Notes: generated by a model from the letters alone, not told the origin. Shown: positions 2,924 through 12,263, counted from the first letter of the stretch. The stretch is 64,000 nucleotides of DNA from GCF_054482525.1 NZ_CM137006.1; one strand, 5' to 3'. Program-made: numbers and translations.

Positions 2924-3319
2924 TTATCTTTTATTTACAGTTTCAATGCAATCAGCGACAAGTTGGTGTGGATTTAGATTCTTCAGATATGGTCTTATGA
3001 TCTTTCCCTTGCTTAATAAATAGCATGTATAGGATTCGGAAAGTCCAGCATCTATTTTGTACATCATTATTCTAGATAAGGATGTGAGAAATGCCTTGTT
3101 ATCATTAGCAGCCATATATGCCAGTCCGAGTTCAGCCTCTGCGGCTTTACATGAAAAATAGCTAAGTGAACACGCTTTTCGTCCCTCTTGGGTACTGGCT
3201 GATATTAGTGCCCATAATATTGCCTTGTCTGCCAAATCCAACTCTCTCTGAAATTGGTTTACAGTAACTGCATTCGCAGAAATAGAGAAAAAAAGCACAA
3301 TTGTTAATAACCTTGCCAT
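2924..3319 (-). CDS. Orphan immunity-like protein for the adjacent Rhs C-terminal tip; predicted signal peptide
   Basis: 131-aa ORF starting ATG 5 bp after the Rhs-fragment stop; N-terminus MARLLTIVLFFSISANA looks like a Sec signal peptide; AT-rich codon usage. Confidence 0.6.
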   Translation of the reverse strand: MARLLTIVLFFSISANAVTVNQFQRELDLADKAILWALISASTQEGRKACSLSYFSCKAAEAELGLAYMAANDNKAFLTSLSRIMMYKIDAGLSESYTCYLLSKGKIIRPYLKNLNPHQLVADCIETVNKR

Positions 3320-3323
3320 ATTT

Positions 3324-4133
3324 CTAGTCCGTCACTGTTAATGTGCTATCTGGCTCTGAAAATATTAGCTCATTTAATTTTTGCATGTCATTAGATGAAC
3401 CAGTTATACAACCCTCGGAACAGAATCGAGGTCCTAAAGATGGACCAAAAGCGTTTAAACAACTATGTGTTAAAAATCCATCACGATTATACGTTTCTGT
3501 ATTTGCTGACGGTACTAAACGTATACCATTAGGTTTTCTATTAGTTGCTCCAGGACCATTAACATTCCAGCTCCATACCCCTGGAGGTATTGGGCCTCTA
3601 TTTTGTAAGTGTGTACAACCAGGATTATTTTTACATTGCATATTATTACCATTATTACCAGAGGCGACTGAAATAGTAAGCACACCATAAGAATTATCAT
3701 CACTTGGCGTATCTGAAACGCATGAAAGCATACCTAAAGTTATGCTGTATAAACAGGTCGCTAATCCCAACGGGTCAATATCAGTTATCGGATTCAACGG
3801 ATACTGATAAAAATTCCATCCCCCCTTCAGTCCAATCGGATCCTGAGTGATATACCGCCCCTGCAGCTGGTGCGGGTTCTCTTCATTCAGCAGGTTGCCC
3901 CACTCATCGTATTCTGCGCACCATTCTGTTGCCCCTTCCGTGCTGATAAGCACCAGCGGCAGGCCGCGATGGTCGCAGTGGTACAGGTGGATTTTTCGCG
4001 CCGGCGTGTACACCGGGTCCATCTGGTTTTGCATCTGCGCCACCGTCAGGCCGCACGATGCCAGCCAGCGTCGGCTTTCCTCACTCACCCGGTCAGCCAG
4101 GATTTCACTTTCCAGCCGGTCGAGCATCTGCAC
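3324..4133 (-). CDS. Orphan Rhs C-terminal fragment (core end plus divergent toxin tip); no own ATG start
   Basis: Translation [29 protein letters not shown]...[18 protein letters not shown] is near-identical to the rhsA core end in this window, then diverges after the DPxGL motif into a unique Cys-rich tip; ORF-track start is a GTG that is an internal Val codon in rhsA. Confidence 0.7.
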
Positions 4134-5121: not shown

Positions 5122-5391
5122 TTATTTTCCGTGGCCAAAATTTAGAATTCTCCCGTCATTTTTGCCTATTTCTATAATAAAAACCCTACCAGCAATTTGG
5201 TCTGATTCAATGGTGCCTTCAACAATCCAACTTGTTGGTAATTCCATGATTTTGTATGGTTTTTCTTCTTCTTCTTCGGCATCATGTCCATAACGATTTT
5301 TAACATACATCTCAGCTAATTCCAATGCTATAGCTTTATTTTTGACCAAATTTCTAACGGTGTATTTCCCCTCACTTTCATACTTGCGCAT
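5122..5391 (-). CDS. Small NTF2-like (YbbC/YhhH-family-like) immunity-type protein
   Basis: 89-aa ORF, ATG start; shares KxxAxxLAExYxKxxYG...KPY...W.xEG...DG pattern with the 115-aa ORF at 6994..7341 and with Rhs-linked YbbC/YhhH proteins as recalled; no clear RBS. Confidence 0.5.
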   Translation of the reverse strand: MRKYESEGKYTVRNLVKNKAIALELAEMYVKNRYGHDAEEEEEKPYKIMELPTSWIVEGTIESDQIAGRVFIIEIGKNDGRILNFGHGK

Positions 5392-5472
5392 TATAATAAT
5401 ATTATTACACTGCGCCCATGTGTTGTATGTAAAAATAAAGATACAATCACATAGGTTCTGAATAATATTTTC

Positions 5473-5838
5473 TTATACGTTGTCATGTATTTTGCAAACA
5501 TTAGGCAATCCTTTTCCATTTATTATATCTTTCCCATGATTATCTATTGCTTTAAAATTTTCACCTATTGACCTTGAATTACTACAATCACTTCCAGTGA
5601 AATCTGAGTTATTCAGAATAGCATTCATCAGAGCCGCATTGCGAAAGACAGCATTTCTAGTTGATGTATGTTGAATCATTACATTTCTTAAATGAGTTTT
5701 TTCAAATTTCGCCCCATCAAGACAATAACCATTGAGGGTGGCACGATGTAGATTCATCCCGCTAAAATCATATCCAGCAAGAGTGGTACTATCTATCTCA
5801 AGAAATTTATTGGTTATTAAAAATGCGATTCTTATCAT
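5473..5838 (-). CDS. Pentapeptide-repeat protein (orphan immunity-like)
   Basis: Translation shows consecutive pentapeptide-like units (ATLNGYCLDGAKFEKTHLRNVMIQHTSTRNAVFRNAALMNAILNNSDFTGSD); first ATG at 5838 preceded by GGAGGA RBS; ORF-track TTG start at 5850 is probably an extension. Confidence 0.6.
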   Translation of the reverse strand: MIRIAFLITNKFLEIDSTTLAGYDFSGMNLHRATLNGYCLDGAKFEKTHLRNVMIQHTSTRNAVFRNAALMNAILNNSDFTGSDCSNSRSIGENFKAIDNHGKDIINGKGLPNVCKIHDNV

Positions 5839-5931
5839 CTGTTCCTCCAATCATCTAACTCCCGAAAAATTTGAAAACCAGAACCTCGCTTAGGCCTGTG
5901 TCCATACTACGTGGGTAGGATTATTCTACGT

Positions 5932-5974
5932 ACTACGCTGTTGTCCCTTACGTGCTGATAAGCGCCAGCGGCAG
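5932..5974 (-). repeat. Isolated ~43-bp scar homologous to the Rhs core-end coding sequence
   Basis: ...gctgttgtcccttacgtgctgataagcgccagcggcagg aligns to rhsA at about 8775..8817 and to the orphan fragment at about 3935..3966, with mismatches; flanks are unrelated. Confidence 0.5.
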
Positions 5975-6090
5975 GTTATTCGGTTTGCGTCGTTGAGTTC
6001 ACTACACTAAAACTCCGTGCCCATATAACCCAAGTCGGAGGCATGCCTTCCTCTGGTTCGTTCCATCTAAAATGTCTATACATAACATGG

Positions 6091-6333
6091 TTATTCAATT
6101 ATTTTTTCTTTGAGTTTATTCTCAATCCAGCTGTCTTTATACCTGATGAAAATTTGACATTCACCAATATTATCAATGTCACCAACATTTGTGTTTCGAA
6201 TTTGACCAACAGCAACTATAGTTGATTCAAAATATTCAACATTGACATTATCTGTAATTATTGAAATTATATAATCATCTGGAATAGAGCCATTAGGAGT
6301 TATATTGAAGAAACTAACATCTGAAAATACCAA
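6091..6333 (-). CDS. Hypothetical small protein (80 aa), possible orphan immunity gene
   Basis: Open frame with only a TTG start and no internal Met; AT-rich; lies downstream of a decayed coding remnant. Weak call. Confidence 0.3.
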   Translation of the reverse strand: MVFSDVSFFNITPNGSIPDDYIISIITDNVNVEYFESTIVAVGQIRNTNVGDIDNIGECQIFIRYKDSWIENKLKEKIIE

Positions 6334-6559
6334 ATAACCATCTTCTAAGTCTTCATTATCATAAAAATTCCATTCTGTTGTACCATAGGCTATCCTTGAG
6401 ATTAAATTAACCTGAATTCTAATTTGTTTACTCCATAAATCAAATTCAATTTTTTATTGCTCGATCACCAAGATATATTCTATCAAACATATTACCCCCC
6501 TATTCTAAAAATACTCAGGCATTCCGCACATTATATCAGCCTCATCTTGATTGCTTCCC

Positions 6560-6840
6560 GTTTCCCAATACGGCGGCGCGGGGAGTCATAAAGGTAAGAA
6601 ATTTCCAGCAGTACGGCGTCCTATTGTTCACGGCGGTAATGCACCAGCCAGTATTGGCTATCGTAGTGATAACCGTGTAACCTGCCGCCGCATCGCGTAT
6701 CTAATGTTCATTCTTTTCCATAAACCGTCCGTACACATTGTGATAGTAAAAATACAATACATCTTCGCTGATGCGGTTATTCTGCTGCATGTGGGAAGCG
6801 CCGAATACTGCTCCCGGTATGGCCAGTAATTACTATTTAG
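6560..6840 (-). pseudogene. Decayed coding remnant (possible orphan toxin-tip fragment)
   Basis: GC-richer patch in AT-rich DNA; minus-strand frames give protein-like stretches (LAIPGAVFGASHMQQNNRISEDVLYFYYHNVYGRFMEKNEH*, AGYTVITTIANTGWCITAVNNRTPYCWKF...) broken by stops; ORF-track 67-aa and 92-aa ORFs overlap here. Confidence 0.3.
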
Positions 6841-6993
6841 TACGACGTTAGGGGGAGTCACTTAATCTCACAGATACTTCAAGTAACAGATGAAAATCGC
6901 TCCTGAAATGAAAAAGAAATTTTTTTGAATGTGTTCCTGTCAAATCAAGTGGTTTTTTCGTCGATATGTAGAGTCATATTGTACACAAAATAG

Positions 6994-7341
6994 TTACGAA
7001 ACACACCTTGGTAAAATATTTGAATCGTCTGAACAGTGGATTATTTTGTGTATTACATCCAACGCTTGCCCATCTTTTTTCGCTATTAGTATTGTAAAAT
7101 TTCCTCCTAACGTCTTCGGTTGTTTTCCCTCGATTTTCCAACAATTATTGTCATCTGTAATACTATATGGTTTCTGAAATTCTGCTTTTTCTTTCCCGTA
7201 TATATATTTAATATAAACATATGATAATTCCAAAGCCATTTCACGACTATTTACTAAAATTTCCGCTGAATTTTCTTTTCCAAATACTGAGTGTGATATT
7301 GTAAACAATATCATAATAAGTAATATTAGTGAGTTTCTCAT
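6994..7341 (-). CDS. Secreted NTF2-like (YbbC/YhhH-family-like) immunity-type protein
   Basis: 115-aa ORF, ATG with AGGTG RBS; N-terminal signal peptide MRNSLILLIMILFTISHSVFG; shares motif pattern with 5122..5391. Confidence 0.6.
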   Translation of the reverse strand: MRNSLILLIMILFTISHSVFGKENSAEILVNSREMALELSYVYIKYIYGKEKAEFQKPYSITDDNNCWKIEGKQPKTLGGNFTILIAKKDGQALDVIHKIIHCSDDSNILPRCVS

Positions 7342-7509
7342 GCTCTACACCTATCGAATCTCAAAAGTTGTGGGTAAAACATTACATTCAGAATATATGA
7401 TATTCTTACCATCGGAATCCATTTTTCCAAATCGACCTTCTGGTGTTCCTGGATACCCATTAAGAACATATTTTTTCGAATAGTTAATTTATTTTCTCAG
7501 GAAGAGATT

Positions 7510-8079
7510 TTATTTTTCTTCACTACGAAGTAGTTCATGCTGTACTTTTGTTAAACATTCGTAAGACTCATCTTTGTTCGGGAGATGTGCTGTCATTCGA
7601 GCATAAGTTGGCTTCTCATCTTTAAAATATTTAACCATGATTGAATTATCAAGGACTGCCAACAACTGAGCTGGATCACTGCTCTTTTTTTGATAGATAC
7701 CCGCTCTTATATAACTTCTAAACCGATCGCCGAGAAACGCCGTTTTTTCTGCTGTATTTAGCAACTCCTGCAACGTTCCTTTGGTTGCATGATTTTCATT
7801 AAGGCGTAGTGATCCGACGCGAATTAAGAGTCTCGCCCCGCTTGGTGTGAATTTGTTATTTTTACATATACCAAGCTCTGTTTGCCAATAATACTCACCT
7901 ATGTCCTCATTCTGATACCATCTCCACATGGTTTTATTATTTAAGACAGGAAACGCGGAAAAAATAGTACCCTTAGTGAAAATGGTAAAGCAATCTTGAT
8001 CTTTAGCTTGTGTTTCGCAATTAGCTATAACACCAAAACTAACGAATATCATCAGCAAAAAGAACAAAGCTCTTTTCAT
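7510..8079 (-). CDS. Putative cognate immunity protein of RhsA (secreted)
   Basis: 189-aa ORF whose ATG overlaps the rhsA stop by 4 bp (8076..8079); N-terminal signal peptide [19 protein letters not shown]; AT-rich relative to the rhsA core. Confidence 0.65.
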
Positions 8080-11000
8080 TTTCTTATTCCTCTCGATGTT
8101 CTCTGTTTCATTTTAGCTAAAATTTCACCCAAATCATCTATCCCTGCTGTTGCTGGCCCATCGGGTTTATTAATGTCTGGGAATAAATAGGGTTCTGCAC
8201 AAGTATATCCTGGTGGTAATTGAGTTGTTGGCCAAGTTGTCTGTGGCAGGTAATCACTTGCTGTCTTTGTCTCCATCCCTGGATACTGGGGATCATCCTG
8301 CGGCGTACAAGTCAGATTGGGTTTTACCCACTTCCTGCAATACAGTGTGTAATCGTAAGGACTTAATGCTCTGAAGAATGTTTTGAAAACATTAGGCGCA
8401 CTACTGGCCTGGTCAATAGGATATGGCAGTCTTAATTGTTTCGCTATGTCTGGCAACTTACTTGGATCGGGCGTAGGCGGTTTGTTGGGTCTCGCTCCAT
8501 ATCCGCCATTATTTAAGTGTCCATATTTAGATGCCAGTCCCATTGAATCTATATACTGAACCGGATTTAACGGATACTGATAAAAATTCCATCCCCCCTT
8601 CAGTCCAATCGGATCCTGAGTGATATACCGCCCCTGCAGCGGGTCATAATAGCGGTGGCGGTTGTAATACAGGCCTGACTCCTCATCATACTGCTGACCC
8701 GGCAGGCGGATGAGCTGCTGCAGCTGGTGCGGGTTATCCTCACTCAGCTGGTTACCCCATTCATCGTATTCTGCGTACCATTCTGTTGCCCCTTCCGTGC
8801 TGACAAGCGCCAGCGGCAGGCCGCGATGGTCGCAGTGGTACAGGTGGATTTTTCGCGCCGGCGTGTACACCGGGTCCATCTGGTTTTGCATCTGCTCCAC
8901 CGTCAGGCCGCACGATGCCAGCCAGCGGCGGCTTTCCTCACTCACCCGGTCAGTAAGGATTTCACTTTCCAGCCGGTCGAGCATCTGCACCAGCACCGGC
9001 GGGAACACCACATCACCACCGTCTTCACCGCCGGACTGCTGAAGCGCATCCGCCAGGCTGCGGCGCTGCGTTTTCGCCAGCTCACCGGTGGCAGTTTCAA
9101 CTCTGATGAGTGGCGTGAAGCTCCCCGGCTGATAAACCGTCTGGATGCGGGTTCTGTCGTTCTGTATCGTGGTCAGCCGGTCGCCGTCCCAGCCGTACCA
9201 GGTCACTTCCGGTTTCCGTGACAGCGACATCCAGCCCGTCAGGTCCCGTTCACGCCGCCACACCCGTTTTGCCACCCTGCGGCCCAGCGGGTCGTAAAGA
9301 TAGCGACTTTCGACCAGCGGCTCTGCATATTGTGTCCGCGTGTAGTGCACCAGCCGGTGCTGACTGTCGTAATGGTACTGGTGAGTCCGCTCATCATCCG
9401 TGCGGATAACCCCTTCCGGGATGAGGTCGGTTTTCTCTGTCAGCCTGCCGTGACGGTCATACCGGTAAAGATAGTGCGCGTCACGGGCGATACGGTTATC
9501 CGGCCACATGCTGAGGGTGCTGTCCGGGTGCAGCTCCGGGTCGGGCAGGCGGTTACCTGCCGGGTCTGTGGCATACGGGATGCGGATATCAAGGTTCGCT
9601 GCCGTGGTGTGAACGCCGGTCAGCCTGCCGGAGTCGCTGTAGCTGTAACTCCGGGTCTGGCGCGGGCTGCTGATGCGGATGAGTTCGCCGTTGTCGTTCC
9701 AGGTGTAATCGCGGTCATACTGCAGGCTGTTCAGATGCTGGCTCTGTAACTGCCCGGCAGGGGTGTAAGCGGTGGTGAGTTCATAACGGCCGAAGCTGCG
9801 CAGCGTTTCCCGGTGCAGGCGGTCGCGGGTGAAATCCACCAGCGGTGTGTCGCCGAGTTTCATGCCTGACAGCCAGCCGCTGCCGTAGGTCAGCCATTCC
9901 ACGGCGGGCAGGCTGTCCGGTATACAGCGGTTCGCCAGTCCCTGCGCGTTGTAAGCGTGTCTGGTTTCATGCTGCCAGAGCAGTGCTTCCGTCTGCGGGT
10001 GATGCACCGTCTGGCGCTCACCGGTCAGGCGGCCTTTCTCATCATACCCGTAATGCACCGTCACCCGGTGGCCTTCGCTGAGATGGCTGATTTGTGTCAG
10101 CCAGCCGCGTTCGTCATACTGCCACTGCTCTGCCGGTTCACCCTTCACGGTGCGGTGAGTGAGGCGGTCTGCTTCGTCATAGTGCCAGTGGGTGACCAGC
10201 CCCTCATCCTCGCTGCGGATAAGTTTGCCGGTCAGGTCGTGGTGATAACGCTGTGTGCGGCCGTCAAAGCCGGTTTCCTGTATCAGCCGGTCAAGTACAT
10301 CGTAACGGAAGGTGGTGTGGCTGCCGTTTTCACTGGTCAGGCGGATGACCCGTCCGGCAGCATCGTATTCCATACTGCGCGTCAGACCGCCCTGCGTGGT
10401 ACGGATGGCCTTTCCCCACGCATCGTACTGTGTCCCGTTTCTGCTGCCGTCCGGGGCAATGACGGCGGTCAGGTCACCGGCGGCGTTGTATTCATACCGC
10501 GTTTCATGGCCCTGCATGTCTTTCACCGCAATTAACTGTCCACGGCTGTCGTATGCGCGGTACTGGCTCAGGCCTTCCTCGCGGTGCACCGCCGTCACCT
10601 GACCAAAACGGTCATGGTCATAACGGGTTACATAACCGGAACAGTCAGTGACGGTCAGCAACTGACCGTAACGGCTCCATGTCATGGTTTTCCGGCTGCC
10701 GGTGGCATCCTCCGTTGCGCAGGGTAAGTCACTGTGTGGATTATCATAACGGTAGCGGGTGATATCGCCGTCAGGGGCAGTTTCCTGAATCAGACGGCCG
10801 GATTCATCATATTCCCGGCGTATTTCCAGCCCGTCAGTCCCGGTGGCTGACGTTAACTGGCTGTGGTGGTTATAGTAAAACGCCGATGCCCTGCCATCCG
10901 GCGTGGTGATGCGCGTGATGAGGCCCGTCACCACATCCGGGCTGTATTCTGTTGTCCGGCCTGCGGCATCCGTCTGTGCCTTAAGCCTGCCCACCGCATC

Positions 11001-12263
11001 AAACTGACTCTGCGTGACGCTGCCGTCCGCGTGTTCCTTTTTCACCACCCGCTTCAGCCCGCCTTCGCCCTGCGTGTGCAGCACTTCACGGCGGTCCAGA
11101 CTGTCGGTGATGGTGATGCGGTCTTTCTCATACTGATACGTGTAGCTTAAGCCTGCCGGGTTTAGCTGCTCTGTCACCCGCCCGTCGCTGTCGTAACGGT
11201 AACGGATTTCCGGCCGGCCCGTGTGACGGTGCGCCACCATCCGGCCCCGGTATTTATCATCGTAAGTAAAGCTGCGCACCTGTGTATTGCTGCGGTCATA
11301 CACCGCCGCCAGTTCGCCGCGCGGCGTCCAGCCATAGCGTACCAGCGGCGCGGCTGGCAGGTTATCCGGATATTCCGGGTCGTGCGTCAGCCACACGGCA
11401 GACAGACGGATGCCGTTGTCCCGGCCATATTCGGTGTAACCCGGCAGGGTATCAGGAAAAGCGGACGGTTCCGTCCCGCCGGAAATGGCCTGCTGCCGGG
11501 CTTCTTCTGCCCGCTGCGCCTGCGTGGTCAGTACCAGCCGGAAGTGACGCCCGGCACCATCCGTCACGCCGCTGAATTCGCCGCCAGCCTCACGGTGGAA
11601 CGTCTGTGTGCGCCCGAAGCGGTCCACCAGCCCGGTCAGTACCCGGTACGGCGGCAGCGGCGCAGGCAGCACCTCATCCGCCTCCGGCACCCGCTCACAC
11701 CAGCCGAGTACCCACCACGGCCCCTGCGGACTGTTCGTCGCCAGATAACGATGCGGACTCAGGCGAAGCTCTTCCGGCAGCGCCTGCCAGAGTGCGGCCA
11801 GCCGGTGACCTTCATCCAGTTTCGCCACGCCGCCACGCACCAGCCAGAGTGACTCGCTGCGGCTGTAACCGTCCTCACCGGGAAACAGGTGCTCAAAATA
11901 CAGGCTCCTGCCGCCGTTATCACTGAGTATCAGTGTGTTATCGCGCAGCTGTAAGCGGATATCCGCGGGCATTTTCCAGCCGGGGCCGAGGCTCCCCACC
12001 GGCGCGGGCGTTTTTGTCCGGTAACTGCTGTAGGTGCGGGAGAGGATGAACGGCAGCGGGCCGGGCAGGGCAAGGTCGGTTTCGCCGGGAAGGACCTTCG
12101 CGCCGAGCAGCGGATTGACCGGATGGCCGGACGTCACCCCGCCGGGGCACACCGAACAGGCCACGCCGGTGGGGGCACCGATGCGCACCCCGGCTGAACC
12201 CTGAACAATGCTACCGCCATACTGCGTCATGTCGCCCTGACGCGCCGCCGGTTTTCCGCTCAT
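8076..12263 (-). CDS. rhsA: Rhs-family polymorphic toxin: PAAR-like N-terminus, YD-repeat core, variant C-terminal tip
   Basis: 1395-aa ORF beginning [29 protein letters not shown], repeated YD/RY motifs, conserved [15 protein letters not shown] near the end followed by a ~170-aa proline-rich tip; sits beside yibF as rhsA does in K-12; GC-rich core. Confidence 0.95.

Follow-up and report, generated by a model that had tools for sequence, protein, structure and literature searches.

A probable chimeric relic of a pentapeptide-repeat immunity gene in a decaying Rhs orphan array of Escherichia coli

The 64,000-nucleotide stretch analyzed here (the window; NZ_CM137006.1 of GCF_054482525.1) covers the E. 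coli rhsA region. Between yibI/yibH and a full-length rhs gene, an array of small AT-rich genes is found, with a GC-rich Rhs core set against AT-rich C-terminal (CT) toxin and immunity cassettes, all on one strand. The immunity families named by PGAP in this array are NTF2, HEAT, Imm57 and DUF6258; the surroundings form an Rhs orphan toxin/immunity array, in agreement with the first-pass annotation, which had placed the ORF of interest (5473-5838) inside an Rhs immunity array. The relevant features are the following:

844-2345: yibI and yibH
5122-5501, minus strand: yhhH-like NTF2-fold immunity gene, partner of a deleted DUF4329 toxin (89% identity to K-12 yhhH, with gaps of 4 nt and 3 nt)
5473-5553, minus strand: last 26 codons and stop of an RhsB-type DUF4329 toxin, in the native frame (~84% nucleotide identity to the rhsB 3' end)
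5554-5559, minus strand: AATTTT microhomology, codons N94-F95, the deletion crossover (three-way DNA comparison)
5560-5838, minus strand: codons 1-93 of a pentapeptide-repeat protein (PRP) immunity gene, encoding the N-terminal cap and ~4 of ~6.25 coils (Pfam and alignments; 94.5% nucleotide identity to the intact allele)
5839-5873, minus strand: last 35 nt of the cognate Rhs C-terminal toxin, ending in QIFRELDDWRNR and stop and holding the GGAGGA motif (46/49 to L031 6444-6492)
5868-5921, minus strand: 54-bp remnant of an IS3 terminus, the remainder of the element being deleted (53/54 to one end of the IS3 copy annotated in L035)
5922-5975, minus strand: decayed 54-bp Rhs core scar, core residues ~1148-1166 (LPLALISTEGA...), with stop codons inside (47/54 to the rhs gene of the window; 48/54 to K-12 rhsB)
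8076-12263, minus strand: full-length rhs, an uninterrupted 1,395-codon ORF in the window

Over 6091-8079 (minus strand), the CT of the main rhs, the genes for a 189-aa ybfC-like protein, an NTF2 protein and DUF6258, and the core scar are in collinear order with the orphan array at rhsC of K-12/BL21 (L024); at the rhsC locus of BL21, the same scar comes after the gene for DUF6258. Because of this collinearity, we regard the window array as a mosaic of rhsC-, rhsE-, rhsB- and rhsA-type cassettes. Further along, an orphan Rhs fragment (3324-4133, minus strand, with core homology to 4154) carries a C-terminal domain for which the PGAP name in the identical genome PCN033 is 'tlde1 domain-containing'. 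Next comes a gene of the Imm57 family (2924-3319, minus strand), which is frameshifted in the PCN033 annotation. The PCN033 counterpart of the main rhs gene (L001 9677-13864) is annotated with an internal stop. TUM14759, 19KM1831 and GPEC874 are identical to the window over 5400-6050, and the whole architecture is common to about 272 genomes, which we take as a sign of a single origin.

The ORF itself has 121 codons plus stop and runs on the minus strand from an ATG at 5838 to a stop codon at 5473-5475. As first annotated, it is preceded by a GGAGGA ribosome-binding site (5848-5843, four nucleotides ahead of the ATG). It had also been described as being built from consecutive pentapeptide-like units; this applies to residues ~16-95, which form 16 consecutive units in register, but not to residues 94-121, which constitute an RhsB-type tail. 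In Pfam, the ORF matches Pentapeptide_4 (E = 3.7e-7, residues 18-83) and Pentapeptide (E = 4.7e-4). PRPs (PF00805/PF13599) are recognized by at least eight five-residue repeats in a row that conform to A(D/N)LXX, and we count 16 such units in the ORF and 25 in its intact parent (see below). A chance ORF was considered and ruled out by the clear homology and the Pfam support. A word-index protein search with the ORF returned near-identical copies and nothing else, and a scan for promoters and terminators around it found no signals above chance level.

In genomes identical to the window, PGAP annotates no 121-aa protein, but two pseudogene pieces, 'pentapeptide repeat-containing, missing C-terminus' and 'missing N-terminus'. 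By blastn, the whole ORF is found in 273 of 5,426 complete E. coli genomes. It varies hardly at all across about 270 genomes; the divergence among its carriers is too low for this near-identity to be a sign of selection. One variant, P0003, is frameshifted. Another, P0002, has D14, I34, N47 and S48 as in the intact allele at the rhsE locus (L031 6479-6964), a pattern of residues that suggests gene conversion between the locus of the truncated copy and the rhsE locus.

In sequence, the ORF is chimeric, with 95 PRP codons joined to the tail of an RhsB-type DUF4329 toxin. The window was compared with the intact PRP gene and with K-12 rhsB. Over residues 94-121 (NFKAIDNHGKDIINGKGLPNVCKIHDNV), 21 of 28 positions agree with the C-terminal end of K-12 RhsB, in the same frame. 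At the DNA level, the window from 5559 downward shares 89% identity with the final 87 nt of K-12 rhsB, and the K-12 homology continues through yhhH and a subsequent yibA-like HEAT gene. The yhhH-like gene is given by PGAP as 'NTF2 fold immunity protein, frameshifted', and an 89-aa internal ORF is all that remains of it. Likewise, nucleotides 280-355 of the ORF are ~84% identical to the rhsB/yhhH junction in ~2,700 of the 5,426 complete E. coli genomes (blastn). The hexanucleotide AATTTT (5559-5554) encodes N-F in both parents, where the surrounding residues read ...IGANFEG... (PRP) and ...SGNFKAI... (RhsB). On the other side of this junction, codons 1-93 are 72-75% identical in nucleotide sequence to genes from Enterobacter and Salmonella. 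The PRP relatives have 150-171 residues and align to about residue 95 of the ORF and no further, which identifies the gene as 3'-truncated. Missing from it are T144, F150 and P152, three positions that are invariant in the family and fall within its W-P-x-G-F-D-P motif.

The upstream side is equally composite. The first-pass annotation had placed the gene immediately next to a 43-bp Rhs core scar. A scar is indeed present, but it measures 54 bp and lies 83 bp away from the gene. The intervening 83 bp consist of the 54-bp IS3 terminus and the final 35 nt of another Rhs toxin, which are joined via a shared CAAATT; the IS3 stretch (5868-5921) is matched at 93-95% by thousands of IS3 copies. The counterpart of the toxin stub in an intact E. 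coli module (L031 6444-6492) reads ...SQIFPELDDWGNR and stop, with an ATGA overlap, and homology to the intact module begins 35 nt ahead of the ATG of the ORF. Since the stub (5873-5839) is the end of that toxin, the seemingly good ribosome-binding site sits within the last codons of the toxin gene (...LDDWRNR and stop).

The intact parent was reached through P0164, a 91-aa E. coli protein whose N-terminus corresponds to residues 71-95 of the ORF and which led to loci of the rhsE-type site. In CFSAN061763, the full-length Rhs protein WP_001563834.1 ends with ...PLYPFSQIFPELDDWGNR and stop and is followed by WP_000618048.1, a 161-aa PRP whose start overlaps the Rhs stop by 4 nt (ATGA). The same overlap is found in L031, L025 and L026. 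The intact allele thus lies directly downstream of an Rhs CT, as an Rhs immunity gene does, whereas the window retains the 35-nt toxin stub alone. The intact module occurs in 144 of the 5,426 complete genomes (~2.7%) with 99.9% identity, and nearly all of these genomes have the truncated copy, too; a further 129 have the truncated copy only, TUM14759, 19KM1831 and GPEC874 among them. The truncated copy shares 94.5% of its nucleotides and 88 of 95 residues with the intact allele, with a dN/dS of 0.30; given this distance, including seven changes in 95 residues, it is an older diverged allele and not a recent duplicate. The dN/dS value could reflect constraint or could equally predate the truncation. 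In metagenomes, all seven hits to a degenerate pattern of the toxin motif were the E. coli module with its PRP, complete in five cases and cut by the contig end in two; this pattern scan returned no other module.

As the first-pass annotation had expected of the ORF, its intact parent (93% identical over residues 1-95) is predicted to be a quadrilateral β-helix. An AF2 model of the intact E. coli PRP, computed from a nine-sequence alignment, reached a pLDDT of 94.8 and a pTM of 0.89 and shows β-bridges at five-residue intervals between about residues 24 and 144. In a Foldseek search against the PDB, the top matches were all PRPs, namely designed solenoids, Np275/276, Rfr32, Alr5209 (TM-score 0.81, rmsd 0.9 Å), QnrB1, HetL, NleL, MfpA, AlbG and EfsQnr. 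With both the model and the top matches being PRP β-helices, the prediction argues for the original fold assignment. The intact protein has 25 units in ~6.25 coils, compared to 16 units in four coils in the window ORF.

Relatives were collected with HMMER from 1.8 billion representative sequences. While the output was dominated by giant repeat proteins, it included the true relatives P0016 (161 aa), P0059 (160 aa) and P0074 (108 aa), and a profile search added P0153-P0156, P0158 and P0160, all with 150-171 residues. A search for related loci with a five-sequence PRP alignment returned two loci and no more. The first-pass annotation had suggested looking for Rhs tips upstream of homologs; homologous toxin-PRP pairs were found in three lineages in addition to the E. 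coli pair. In an enterobacterial locus (L032), the end of an Rhs core leads into a toxin with 56-65% identity to the E. coli toxin and an internal stop, followed by a PRP with 66% identity (P0153). In a GC-rich locus (L045), an Rhs core with the RYYDPxxGRF motif precedes a toxin with 32-37% identity that carries the motif KVDGNVIVDGHHRFVAG and is separated by a 1-nt spacer from a PRP with 34% identity (P0160). Finally, in Pseudomonas aeruginosa pHPA0008-4 (L046), a toxin with 38% identity is attached to a non-Rhs N-terminal region, has an in-frame stop and ends with ...DQVDWGNK and stop; the PRP downstream of it shows ~35% identity and has lost its start codon. The L046 record has 2,630 bp, is deposited as a plasmid and consists mostly of the decayed toxin and the PRP gene; it may represent an assembly artefact or an excised circle.

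Over these four pairs (E. coli, L032, L045 and L046), a small sample, the identities of toxin and PRP drop in parallel. Co-inheritance and co-divergence with one specific toxin domain, across lineages and delivery scaffolds, is a criterion by which RhsI immunity proteins are judged, and it is seen in these few pairs. In Salmonella salamae and in L043, moreover, orphan PRP genes are immediately preceded by relics of toxin tails with the ending ...DWGN(R/K) and stop. The orphan in S. salamae comes after Rhs-DUF4329, Imm-NTF2 and an IS630 element, and an Enterobacter orphan lies within an Rhs orphan array. The presence of toxin-PRP pairs in E. coli and three further lineages, together with relics in two more, supports an immunity reading of the family, which on these sequence patterns is very probably an Rhs/polymorphic-toxin immunity family. 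The first-pass description of the gene as an Rhs immunity gene therefore applies to the family with its toxin pairing, but not to the window copy, which is truncated and has no cognate toxin.

Homologs lying consistently outside toxin/immunity contexts had been named as a point that would speak against an immunity function. Some do exist at 34-57% identity, at sites without toxins, but the closest ones, with at least 66% identity, are all found in Rhs contexts. In cryptic Escherichia, for instance, PRP homologs with 44-55% identity lie between yoaH and yoaC (sp. E4742; L013-L015 8001-8453; L011 and L012), and truncated versions of 97-108 residues are found in assemblies labelled as E. coli. 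In Intestinirhabdus alba, a stand-alone PRP gene sits between a methyltransferase gene and azlD, and one distant homolog lies in an uninformative island. As a further observation, the 3,877-bp contig L033 of the metagenome-assembled genome 'Sphingobacterium sp. UBA6711' holds an Rhs orphan array of the Enterobacter type with CTs of glycine-rich membrane toxins, transmembrane immunity genes, together with a near-identical counterpart of the PRP P0155; it is probably a bin contamination.

The cognate toxin is an Rhs C-terminal domain of ~145 residues (~1261-1403 in WP_001563834.1) with the motif DGNVIVxG(N/H)HR and the ending ...DWGN(R/K). The core shared by four toxin sequences reads VS(V/L)P..V..L..G..AP...DGNVIVxG(N/H)HR..A...PG...DWGN(R/K). 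Sequence and profile searches of Pfam, NCBIfam, PADLOC, PHROGs and the PDB gave no family match; the one Pfam alignment was to ddrB-ParB (PF18763) at E = 0.3, and a word-index search found two fragments only. The motif recalls DGxHR of ParB and sulfiredoxin (Srx), a likeness we treat as a lead. In hhalign comparisons, the motifs came out in register, but the probability was only 1.3% for the Spo0J N-domain and 0.2% for human Srx, neither being significant. An AF2 model of the toxin from a two-sequence alignment was unusable (pLDDT 43).

The first-pass annotation had suggested that the cognate toxin targets a DNA-binding enzyme such as gyrase, or is a nuclease blocked by a DNA mimic. Given a toxin with neither a family match nor a usable model, both a gyrase-targeting or nuclease activity and DNA mimicry by the PRP are conjecture. 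The charges lend this idea no support, because the toxin is acidic (pI 4.8) and the intact PRP mildly acidic (net charge -5, pI 5.2); the chimera has a net charge of +2 and a pI of 8.5. A more elaborate proposal, which we consider doubtful, is that the parent module represents an undescribed pair, in which a small ParB/Srx-like toxin would act on DNA or nucleotides and the PRP would occupy its substrate groove as a DNA mimic, with an Rhs carrier in enterobacteria and another scaffold in Pseudomonas; the four-coil stub in the window may then keep partial binding. If true, this would extend the mimicry of Qnr and MfpA from target protection to the direct inhibition of a toxin.

Taken together, we consider the ORF a chimeric relic of a decaying Rhs orphan array and most likely a non-functional pseudogene (probability roughly 0.8). 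Its history may be reconstructed as follows. In its intact 161-aa form, the PRP gene comes directly after a full-length Rhs gene, with an ATGA overlap; its product would be co-translated with the toxin, bind and block it, and thereby protect the producer. One deletion, at CAAATT, removed the toxin save for its last 35 nt and joined this stub to an IS3 end that had inserted into an Rhs core fragment. A second one, at AATTTT, removed the last ~66 PRP codons and left the remainder fused, in frame, to the 26 terminal codons of a DUF4329 toxin of the RhsB type; the yhhH-like immunity gene of that toxin comes next and is frameshifted, too. From the window copy, some 40% of the helix is gone, together with the conserved C-terminus. 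With two to three coils, the W-P-x-G-F-D-P cap and a cognate toxin in cis all missing, this copy most likely has no function. Some toxin binding may nevertheless persist, as its four coils exceed the eight-repeat minimum of PRPs.

This bears on the alternative that the truncated chimera still works as an orphan immunity protein, directed against rhsE-type toxins delivered by neighbors. The ORF is intact and has a GGAGGA site, its product retains 16 repeats and, over 95 residues, 93% identity to the intact protein, and its dN/dS of 0.30 fits such a role. Moreover, exposure to the toxin is plausible, since 144 E. coli genomes carry it, compared to 129 with the truncated copy only. However, two to three coils and the family-invariant C-terminal cap are lost, and the uncapped end of a β-solenoid is expected to be unstable. 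In addition, the neighboring genes are decaying as well, as seen in the frameshifted yhhH-like gene, the IS3 stub and the stop codons in the scar; frameshifted variants such as P0003 exist, and the near-identity of the carriers is no evidence of selection. We therefore regard a working orphan as unlikely and prefer the pseudogene reading.

Three further alternatives concern the family as a whole, and we consider each of them far less probable still. One holds that the PRP is a mere housekeeping protein, caught in Rhs arrays by chance recombination without any link to toxins. The core-genome sites of the 34-57% homologs (yoaH-PRP-yoaC and methyltransferase-PRP-azlD) would fit this idea, but four independent toxin-PRP pairs and the relics upstream of orphans are very hard to attribute to chance, and all homologs with at least 66% identity are in Rhs contexts, which makes it highly improbable. 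Much the same applies to a role as a type VI secretion (T6SS) accessory protein or adaptor that loads the Rhs effector rather than conferring immunity, comparable to the PRPs with DUF2169. Such accessory functions of PRPs have been reported in work cited in PMC10933656. In our case, however, the PRP gene comes directly after the toxin domain and co-diverges with it, orphans persist in arrays along with toxin-tail relics, P. aeruginosa pairs the PRP with a non-Rhs toxin carrier, and no DUF2169 gene is adjacent to the module of CFSAN061763; an adaptor is thus very unlikely. The least credible option is a PRP of the Qnr/MfpA/AlbG/McbG type, protecting gyrase or topoisomerase IV as a DNA mimic. 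The fold is the same, and the NCBIfam models for MfpA and Qnr show weak similarity to the ORF (E = 1e-3) and the intact protein (E = 1e-8 to 1e-9). Yet the scores stay far below the curated cut-offs, with 19.4 bits (ORF) and 37 bits (intact) against 360 for MfpA, and 19 and 33 bits against 460 for QnrB, so that membership in these families was rejected; the Alr5209 and HetL models, too, match the ORF weakly and below threshold. The intact protein also has 161 residues rather than ~180-220 and a net charge of only -5, and its closest relatives are tied by ATGA to an Rhs toxin, not to topoisomerase or antibiotic-biosynthesis genes.

The window feature is ordinary decay of an Rhs array, and it draws attention to an immunity family that is poorly described. 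It is a textbook case, in which one IS insertion and two microhomology deletions yielded an in-frame chimera of immunity protein and toxin tail. This chimera is relevant to annotation, since a 121-aa protein is called there by many pipelines. As for the parent, literature searches for the E. coli toxin/PRP pair found no paper describing it, and the intact Rhs toxin/PRP pair appears uncharacterized; it is small, occurs in a tractable organism and could serve to test β-helix immunity by DNA mimicry.

PRPs are barely documented as immunity factors against delivered protein toxins. YjbI-like PRP genes have been noted to adjoin GH-E Rhs nucleases, with no immunity role ascribed to them by the authors (Jablonska et al. 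2017, PMC5714182). For Tsi6a/Tse6 of Stenotrophomonas rhizophila, PRP-like immunity to an Rhs-CT has been predicted, as has a PRP antitoxin for a T7SS toxin of M. chelonae (bioRxiv 10.64898/2026.07.13.738213). In these systems, which are mostly predictions, a PRP gene likewise lies directly downstream of an Rhs CT toxin, and the likeness rests on gene position; the toxin domain described here differs from theirs and matches neither GH-E nor any other Pfam family. With the PRPs of the Rfr fold, such as Alr5209 (6omx), Np275/276 (2j8k) and Rfr32 (2f3l), the family shares the five-residue repeats and the predicted right-handed quadrilateral β-helix. Those proteins, however, have no known toxin partner, and the window copy differs from them in being a truncated chimera.

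Qnr, MfpA, AlbG and McbG have the same fold and are conceptually alike in their self-protection role, AlbG and McbG being PRPs that protect their producers from a toxic product (PMC7897471, PMC7980463). These proteins act on gyrase as mimics of T-segment DNA, against quinolones, albicidin or microcin B17. For the PRP described here, direct toxin binding would seem more likely, since its partner is a delivered protein toxin; it is also shorter and gives no evidence of the Qnr loops. Finally, a close comparison is with the Rhs modules and orphan arrays of E. coli at rhsA, rhsB and rhsC (RhsB-YhhH, ybfO-ybfC and yibA). The PRP β-helix stands apart from the immunity families annotated in the window array (NTF2, HEAT, Imm57 and DUF6258), and its toxin domain matches no described family. 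The locus type, however, is the same, with a GC-rich core and AT-rich CT/immunity cassettes. The immunity gene likewise directly follows and overlaps the toxin gene, and displaced, decaying orphans are present along with scars of the core and fragments of IS elements. In part, the window array is homologous to the rhsB and rhsC arrays of K-12 and BL21.
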